From the sequence record PP925826.1: 64,000 nt of DNA; one strand, given 5' to 3'. This document shows, piece by piece, positions 15,305 to 15,480 of this stretch. Under the pieces are notes generated by a model that ran no database searches, was not told the DNA's origin, and was given only the letters and a program-made list of their open reading frames with translations. Both the position numbers and the translations under genes were made by a program. This stretch comes from Escherichia phage Antha. Each line of letters opens with the position of its first letter. Position 1 is the stretch's first letter.

Positions 15305-15480
15305 GGGATACAATATACAATTGTATATTGTTGCGCTTGCAGTTGTTGCAAGCTACATAAACACAAATAATAACTATCGGTGATGGTTATTATGTGGGGG
15401 GGTGTAGTTGCGTTATTATTAGCCGCCTATGTGTCCGGCATAGGCTGCTAATGATACGCTTGCGAATTATATTTCTTGTT
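15305..15480. repeat. cluster of four perfect or near-perfect palindromes/hairpins
   Basis: 22-bp palindrome acaatatacaattgtatattgt; gcttgca..tgcaagc; ataataac..gttattat; attagccgcctatg..cataggctgctaat. Confidence 0.55.

Follow-up and report, generated by a model that had tools for sequence, protein, structure and literature searches.

A strand-specific branched fold beside the terminal repeat of a phi92-like phage

What does a dense cluster of palindromes and hairpins do in gene-free DNA near the end of a phage genome? Here, we present an analysis of such a locus in a 64,000-nucleotide stretch of Escherichia phage Antha (PP925826.1; the window, to which all positions refer unless another locus is named), which derives from a phi92-like myophage (Stephanstirmvirinae, Justusliebigvirus) with a double-stranded genome of 147 kb and is reversed in orientation relative to phi92. 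An earlier note, made from the letters alone, had described four palindromes and hairpins at 15305-15480 and proposed a replication origin, a packaging or nicking site, or a structured noncoding RNA (ncRNA). We found that they belong to one selected structured nucleic-acid element, rather than being chance palindromes, and that this element lies beside the direct terminal repeat (DTR) of the genome. Thus, the proposal of a cis-located structured element holds, while the evidence picks none of the three roles. As judged from the sequence comparisons, the element most likely acts in starting replication or in handling the genome ends.

One branched fold, kept by compensatory changes

All four structures of the earlier note are present. 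The perfect 22-bp palindrome ACAATATACAATTGTATATTGT (15310-15331) is the longest in the window, where the runners-up have 14 bp, and it had no match in 100 shuffles, even with three mismatches allowed. The 7-bp stem GCTTGCA/TGCAAGC (15335-15341/15347-15353) closes a 5-nt loop; the 8-bp stem ATAATAAC/GTTATTAT (15367-15374/15386-15393) grows to 12 pairs with one T.G; and the ~14-bp stem ATTAGCCGCCTATG/CATAGGCTGCTAAT (15418-15431/15439-15452) has 13 of 14 pairs, with one C.T mismatch. Overlooked was a perfect 15-nt inverted repeat (15276-15290/15409-15423). Because this repeat joins the first three hairpins into one branched fold, the feature begins at 15276 and not at 15305. The 15-bp stem encloses these hairpins with nearly no unpaired linker, giving a four-way junction, and the fourth hairpin ends at 15452. 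The whole element is, therefore, a fold of ~180 nt on the + strand, a four-way junction and a following hairpin, with the helices P1 to P5 listed in Table 1. The first 6 nt of P5 overlap the 3′ arm of P1, and the 3′ tail could pair alternatively with the arms of P1 and P3.

The fold stands out energetically. Among all 200-nt segments of the 64 kb, 15251-15450 was the top outlier on both strands (folding z of −7.3 and −6.5), and the best unrelated segments reached only −3.1 and −3.5. Relative to dinucleotide shuffles, z was −8.4 (DNA parameters, + strand), −7.75 (RNA parameters, + strand) and −6.4 (RNA parameters, − strand), and 0 of 200 shuffles were as stable as the element. No further copy of the palindrome or of its half-site was found elsewhere in the window. 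The noncoding location is borne out: the list of open reading frames (ORFs) has none of at least 40 aa over 15218-15829 on either strand, and in the alignment of relatives substitutions in the element track base pairs, not codons. A protein-coding gene is accordingly rejected. Tiny 'hypothetical proteins' (6-8) are annotated across the gap, some over the element, in PP925843, PQ438393, PV682554, PQ529420, OR584014 and PQ882504; these ORF calls are almost certainly spurious.

The earlier note had named a lack of conservation in relatives as evidence against its idea; instead, the fold is kept by compensatory changes. The region matches 131 phage records. Because Phapecoctavirus relatives align over 15331-15455 only (~80% identity), the element is the best-conserved part of the gap. 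We gathered 22 distinct versions of this type (type A) from annotated phages, viral contigs and metagenomes; pattern scans of the metagenomes and viral contigs yielded only 16 loci, of which 3 were false positives in coding DNA. In a plain MAFFT alignment, every sequence kept P1 paired across arms 118 nt apart, and four of its pairs had changed on both sides (e.g. AACGCA/TGCGTT becomes AAGCCA/TGGCTT, ACCGCA/TGCGGT, AACACA/TGTGTT or ATATTA/TAATAT); in the P4 inner stem and in P5, seven and four pairs, respectively, were doubly changed. RNAalifold recovered the same helices unaided. In an alignment of 21 sequences fitted to our covariance model R1, 99.3% of 1071 pair cells were paired and 15 of 51 pairs had double changes, a level of covariation that no shuffle reached; controls with partners slid by 1-3 columns gave 25-55% pairing and 1-6 doubly changed pairs. 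Here, P1 was 100% paired in 21-22 sequences with four doubly changed pairs, the P4 inner stem had double changes at six of nine modelled pairs (with T.G, C-G and T-A at one position), and P5 had them at three. Fitting to R1 biases an alignment toward the structure, but the unfitted MAFFT alignment agrees; the event counts are modest, as many of the sequences are closely related. Altogether, compensatory changes maintain five of the six helices, and the sixth never varies. The invariant parts are the P3 stem, the outer stems of P1 and P4, and motifs in the loops of P2 and P5. Each genome carries the element once, at a fixed syntenic site; no further instance was detected with the covariance model, whose − strand matches at the element are only the mirror image.

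The mismatched cells indicate which strand folds. Read on the + strand, the non-Watson-Crick cells of the MAFFT alignment were 29 G.T vs 1 A.C, and the fitted alignment had G.T at at least 10 pair positions vs C.A at a single one. Because the wobble cells are almost all G.T on the + strand, we conclude that this is the selected folding strand. The + strand was also more stable than the − strand in 21 of 21 homologues under RNA parameters (mean −77.9 vs −58.4 kcal/mol) as well as DNA parameters (mean −45.1 vs −40.2 kcal/mol). Such strand-specific selection excludes simple double-stranded operator sites. Covariation that tolerates G.T is compatible with RNA and with folded single-stranded DNA alike.

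The 22-bp palindrome, which the earlier note stressed most, is perfect as described and yet the least conserved part of the element. It forms a 9-bp stem with a 4-nt AATT loop, and close relatives have TCTC or CAT at its center. Phapecoctavirus genomes lack the palindrome insert, phAPEC8 having a 16-bp palindrome instead, and Klebsiella phage KP2025 carries an unrelated palindrome at the same spot. From this comparison, we interpret the palindrome as a lineage-specific elaboration of the P2 loop. Two other loops are reverse-complemented between clades, ATTAT/ATAAT in P3 (15342-15346) and GGT/ACC in P4 (15379-15381). These flips argue that the P3 and P4 loops are not constrained in sequence, and we regard the flips as small DNA-level inversions that the flanking stem arms would mediate. 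The P5 loop contains a self-complementary CCGG in most clades and CCCG in the Klebsiella clade.

Database and class searches returned no known family. With Rfam 15 at the gathering threshold, there were 0 matches in the window and 0 in the loci of five relatives, and a permissive scan gave chance-level matches only (E of at least 0.5); a tRNA/tmRNA scan of the window found none. An intrinsic terminator was rejected because no T-run follows the P3 or P5 stem. A mobile element (MITE or insertion sequence) was rejected given the single copy at a fixed syntenic site, no match to the element in E. coli genomes and no flanking duplication. An iteron/DnaA-type origin was rejected as well: although an AT-rich tract adjoins, iteron searches found only weak two-copy repeats and no array of at least three, there is no DnaA box (TTWTNCACA) in 14400-16150, and the window-wide count of such boxes is at chance level. 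No Chi sites were found near the element.

Position at the genome end and versions in other phages

The element lies in a gene-free gap of ~1.6 kb. The flanking genes on both sides are all on the − strand, and the + strand of the element is antisense to every neighboring gene. The terminator at the right border of the gap is also annotated in the Paula and phAPEC8 records. The neighboring proteins all fall into PHROG families of unknown function and, therefore, give no pointer to a partner protein. The replisome proteins of the phage include a PolA-type polymerase and a gp4-type primase-helicase. Our literature searches found no description of the element or region and nothing relevant on T7 hairpin processing. 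The rV5 genome paper shows the region as an empty box marked "non-coding", was unable to place the origin and describes the replisome as T7-like (PMC3606486).

The DTR coordinates in the window were assigned by homology to phi92 alone. Because the DTR is present once, we conclude that the assembly of the window is the collapsed, concatemer-junction form. In the relative BME3, a 342-bp DTR was found independently with PhageTerm (PMC12210895). The element starts 253 bp past the DTR boundary on the unique right-end side, and the + strand of the window carries the 5′ end at the right-hand genome end. The boundary motif AAATCAAGA..TTTTAAGAGAAGtGGCT, followed across the cut by CAACA, is kept in the type A clades other than Justusliebigvirus (Phapecoctavirus, Klebsiella relatives and a metagenome clade; our loci L006-L027), where its distance upstream of the element is in most cases 200-330 nt, with 477 nt in KP13-26. 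A second copy often stands 20-90 nt further in, and then come a sequence-variable hairpin and two GCCCCCAAA-type boxes; together, these are candidate terminase recognition and cut sites.

Table 1. Positions of the element, its helices and flanking features (positions in the window unless a locus is named; a slash within GGCT/CAACA marks the cut)
Feature	Position	Strand	Remarks
DTR homologue	14680-15022		343 bp in phi92; both annotated phi92 copies align, 3 mismatches
DTR inner boundary	15017-15059	+	Cut between 15022 and 15023, GGCT/CAACA, inside the 21-nt direct repeat TAGGCTCAACAAATAGGATAT / TAGGGGTAACAAATAGGCTAT
Weak promoter-like site	15135-15163	+	TTGACA, 17 nt, TTCACA; GC hairpin 15166-15187 after it
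P1, 5′ arm of closing stem	15276-15290	+	GCTAATAATAACGCA; perfect 15-nt inverted repeat
P2	15292-15335	+	Stem CGCAACAAT / ATTGTTGCG; loop holds hairpin 15310-15331 and conserved motif TGTAAGGG
P3	15335-15353	+	Hairpin GCTTGCA-GTTGT-TGCAAGC; stem invariant, loop free
P4	15353-15407	+	Outer stem CTACAT/GTGTAG, inner stem ATAATAACTATC/GATGGTTATTAT; G-run 15395-15402 on 3′ side
P1, 3′ arm	15409-15423	+	TGCGTTATTATTAGC; inverted repeat
P5	15418-15452	+	Hairpin ATTAGCCGCCTATG-TGTCCGG-CATAGGCTGCTAAT; conserved pyrimidine-pyrimidine mismatch
3′ tail	15447-15463	+	GCTAATGATACGCTTGC; repeats 5′ arms of P1 (GCTAAT) and P3 (CGCTTGC)
AT-rich, nearly C-free tract	15464-15830	+	17 C, 62 G in 367 nt
Intrinsic terminator of gp248-like gene	16067-16085	−	Gene 16101-16484 (−); right border of gene-free gap
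Fur-box-like sites	14931-14949, 14737-14755, 15780-15798, 15838-15856, 26480-26600, 38449-38467		
Type B element	L033 5281-5481	−	Also loci L031, L030, L034-L041
LL12-type element	L042 2337-2520	+	rV5-like phage LL12; third version, by folding energy

More distant relatives carry a comparable structure at the equivalent place, with a perfect 18-20-bp AT-rich closing stem, internal hairpins and then a GC hairpin. Model R1 scores these elements at no more than 12 bits, i.e. leaves them undetected; rather, they were located by folding energy. One version (type B) was found in 63 records of Vequintavirinae (Seunavirus, Mydovirus and others, including PVP-SE1, GAP31, 4MG, KNP2 and Mydo). In a plain alignment of 11 of these elements, 98.8% of the cells were paired and 9 pairs were changed on both sides vs 0-1 in slid controls; on the corresponding strand, wobble cells were 26 G.U vs 1 A.C. 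In 11 of 11 cases, a cTTGACA-N15-cATGCTCAAAAAC motif lies ~130 nt upstream of the element, and a GC hairpin with a T-run follows it directly, then a second promoter-like motif; the flanking motifs were also recorded as TTGACA-N15-ATGCTCAAAAAC with a terminator-like hairpin. A third version, in phage LL12, starts 212 bp from a terminal repeat mapped with PhageTerm. Thus, the order of repeat, spacer of ~200-250 bp and element holds for the window, with its phi92-mapped repeat, and for LL12. The three versions have the same architecture and place and unrelated sequences. As R1 misses type B and the LL12 type, both found via folding energy, the three may be homologous or only analogous.

Directly after the element, the AT-rich tract (78% A+T, 4.6% C and 17% G on the + strand) is the most base-depleted stretch of the window. 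All type A clades keep its C depletion but not its sequence; a single GTC and no CTG occur on its + strand. On the − strand, the tract would read as C>G and rut-like, right after the gp248 terminator.

Other signals were noted along the window. Six Fur-box-like palindromes match GATAATGATWATCATTATC with at most three mismatches, vs 0.05 expected; one match of 17/19 is within the terminal repeat, and boxes cluster in another gene-free region, 26200-26800. The terminal gap holds all three copies of the 13-bp core AATGATTATCATT that the window contains, and similar boxes are present in the terminal gap of Vequintavirinae relatives. These could be host Fur sites or operators of a phage repressor. 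On the − strand at 16559-25586, some dozen strong promoters of early type (TTGACA-N17-TAnAnT) are regularly arrayed, each with a conserved CAC(A/G)TAGGGCGG motif 4-5 bases downstream, presumably the 5′ end of the transcript; the + strand site at 15135 has TTGACA and CACATAGCGCC in common with them and lacks a proper −10. At 26227-26340 on the + strand, amid genes that are all on the − strand, a strong promoter match (TTGACA-N16-TATACT) precedes ~100 nt of GC-rich, structure-prone noncoding DNA, which may be a small RNA gene. Four records labeled 'Campylobacter phage' (MG065639, MG065645, MG065656 and MG065689) are 92% identical to the coliphage region over its full length, and OR584014 ('Pseudomonas phage PsgM04F') has, letter for letter, the same element as Escherichia phage phiWec190; for these five records, the host labels look doubtful, pointing to contamination or mis-assignment.

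Candidate functions

Two models for the start of replication agree best with these data. Tentatively, we suggest that a + strand RNA primes replication, i.e. that the element is part of a transcription-primed R-loop origin beside the terminal repeat. According to this model, the host RNA polymerase would start on the + strand ~100 nt ahead of the element and transcribe inward, away from the genome end; the transcript, antisense to the neighboring genes, would fold into the junction and then enter the AT-rich, C-free tract. There, the purine-biased, Rho-resistant RNA could stay hybridized to its template as an R-loop, and the RNA-DNA hybrid would serve as the primer for the T7-like replisome with its PolA-type polymerase and gp4-type primase-helicase. 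We list this model first, by a small margin, because of the RNA-like wobble pattern and because type B looks like a transcription unit; it is strengthened by the promoter-like motif on the same strand and the GC hairpin with T-run that flank type B. The selected structure and its strand, the position near the repeat in the window and in LL12, and the G-skewed AT-rich tract downstream also count in its favor. Several observations weigh against it. A sigma-70 promoter scan of the gap was at chance level, with no convincing promoter upstream of the element, and we found no upstream promoter shared across all type A clades. The 15135 site, which the consensus scan did not report, has a poor −10 and is conserved in Justusliebigvirus only; the Klebsiella and metagenome clades lack its TTGACA. 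After P5 there is neither a terminator nor a processing signal, the terminator-like sites in 14300-16300 being confined to 16067-16098, with none at P3 or P5. The Vequintavirinae version shows no C depletion downstream. Finally, the absence of iterons and DnaA boxes is no argument against an R-loop origin, yet it leaves an origin without that independent support.

About as likely, and equally tentative, is the reading that the folded molecule is DNA and that the displaced + strand acts as a second-strand (lagging-strand) start signal for primer synthesis or helicase loading. By this route, the 3′ end of a terminal repeat would invade the repeat of a sister genome and extend inward, displacing the + strand of the spacer and the element; displacement by such repeat-primed extension would begin ~250 nt before the element. 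The strand-specific covariation and the greater stability of the + strand under DNA parameters are as expected from this scheme, which needs no promoter and so suits the clades without one. It would also explain the fairly fixed distance to the repeat in several clades that can no longer be aligned (mostly ~200-330 nt, 212 in LL12, 477 in KP13-26), and a C-free + strand is expected from cytosine deamination during prolonged single-strandedness. GTC is the T7-type primase site, and the tract holds only one; the replisome is T7-like; and the loop flips point to hairpins that act at the DNA level. On the other hand, G.T pairs that are invariant (closing the P5 loop) or nearly so (in P4) would be expected in RNA rather than DNA helices, the version in Vequintavirinae resembles a transcription unit, and no known single-strand initiation signal is as elaborate as a four-way junction. 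Moreover, the scheme assumes that replication starts at the genome ends, and that such a fork would displace the + strand is a geometric inference.

Two further explanations appear unlikely to us. In the first, the element is a packaging or end-making signal, in which a terminase or a helper would read the folded or cruciform element and start packaging or duplicate the repeat. In favor of this idea are its place on the unique right-end side, with 253 bp between it and the conserved cut motif, the further conserved GCCCCCAAA-type boxes (twice) and the variable hairpin in the spacer just after the cut site, and the rV5-type element at the same place beside a PhageTerm-mapped repeat; in addition, a fold-back of the + strand 3′ end would be oriented to copy toward the repeat. 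However, terminase small subunits normally read duplex repeats, so that no G.T bias on one strand is expected; staggered nicks at the repeat boundaries suffice for repeat duplication and require no remote hairpin; and the element is more complex than a fold-back primer requires.

The second, which we likewise consider improbable, is a free-standing ncRNA that would act in trans, e.g. as a protein sponge, an anti-defense decoy or a pRNA-like part, with the location at the terminus reflecting conserved gene order. Rfam has no match, neither a promoter nor a terminator is seen in the window, and there is no evident partner protein among neighbors that are all of unknown function. In addition, the loops of P3 and P4 show no constraint and even flip. 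In its favor are the conserved loop motifs of P2 and P5, the RNA-like covariation with G.U pairs, the promoter-like and terminator-like flanks in Vequintavirinae, and the existence of three sequence-unrelated versions of one architecture, as for phi29-type pRNAs.

Ordinary duplex features, i.e. operators of dimeric regulators, terminators or chance in AT-rich DNA, are very improbable and effectively excluded by the covariation, the strand bias and the folding z-scores: although the P3 and outer P1 stems are operator-like in their invariant sequence and Fur-box-like operators occur in the same gap, six helices are maintained with arms 118 nt apart that covary, G.T is tolerated on one strand only, the palindrome sequence is nowhere else in the window, and the stems lack a T-run.

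A broader proposal, to which we give little credence at present, is that the rV5/phi92 supergroup (Vequintavirinae and Stephanstirmvirinae) encodes a dedicated genome-end RNA just inside one terminal repeat as a part of its replication or packaging machinery. Such an RNA, with at least three versions unrelated in sequence and one architecture, would be a primer RNA or a pRNA-like cofactor. We know of no genome-end RNA component of that sort in any myovirus.

rV5-like and phi92-like phages are widely isolated and are used as therapeutic candidates. The element, with its defined strand and helices and its roughly fixed distance to the repeat, offers mutagenesis an exact target, and it represents a structure family supported by covariation and missing from Rfam.

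Comparison with known systems

ColE1 RNA II, the T4 ori(uvsY) and ori(34) R-loops, and the T7 promoter-type origins (phiOL/phiOR) are transcription-primed origins. They share with the putative origin a structured or promoter-driven transcript that is followed by an easily unwound AT-rich tract, with a GC skew that favors the RNA-DNA hybrid; a downstream AT-rich tract with G>C was found in all type A clades (15464-15830). T7 is similar in having secondary origins a few hundred bp inside its terminal repeats and a replisome with a PolA polymerase and gp4-like protein. By contrast, the element has no proven promoter, signals for RNase H or an antisense partner are lacking, and none of these origins contains a four-way junction.

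The complementary-strand origins of G4 and M13, the PriA site of phiX174 and the mitochondrial light-strand origin are single-strand initiation signals, which work only on the displaced strand; the mitochondrial system uses a T7-like replisome. These are strand-specific DNA folds with compensatory change, and a fold on one strand that is kept by compensatory change is also what we found here. The known signals are simple hairpins, one to three in number, of replicons that are single-stranded or replicate by strand displacement, whereas the element is a four-way junction plus a hairpin in a large double-stranded myophage.

At the concatemer junction of T7 and T3, a short exact terminal repeat is accompanied at a few hundred bp by an inverted repeat, which lies on the unique right-end side; the same arrangement is found in the window and, at 212 bp, in LL12. 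A hairpin-primed model was reportedly proposed for the T7 junction by Chung, Nardone and Hinkle in 1990. In T7, however, there is a single palindrome with no reported multi-helix covariation.

The pRNA of phi29 is encoded beside the end of a linear genome and keeps its architecture while its sequence diverges past recognition, as is the case for the element. It differs in having covarying loop-loop contacts; a phi29-type pRNA was rejected here because the P3 and P4 loops vary freely and flip, and because phi29-type pRNAs belong to protein-primed podoviruses without terminal repeats, whereas the phages studied here have direct terminal repeats. The injection-stop region of phage T5 is gene-free, located beside a terminal repeat, contains direct and inverted repeats, and is conserved among relatives. 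In contrast to the element, its place is the inner end of a 10-kb repeat and it is linked to DNA entry in two steps, with no single covarying fold described. Altogether, on these likenesses, the element resembles several known classes and would be a member of none; it is apparently an undescribed member among the terminus-proximal cis elements and structured ncRNAs.

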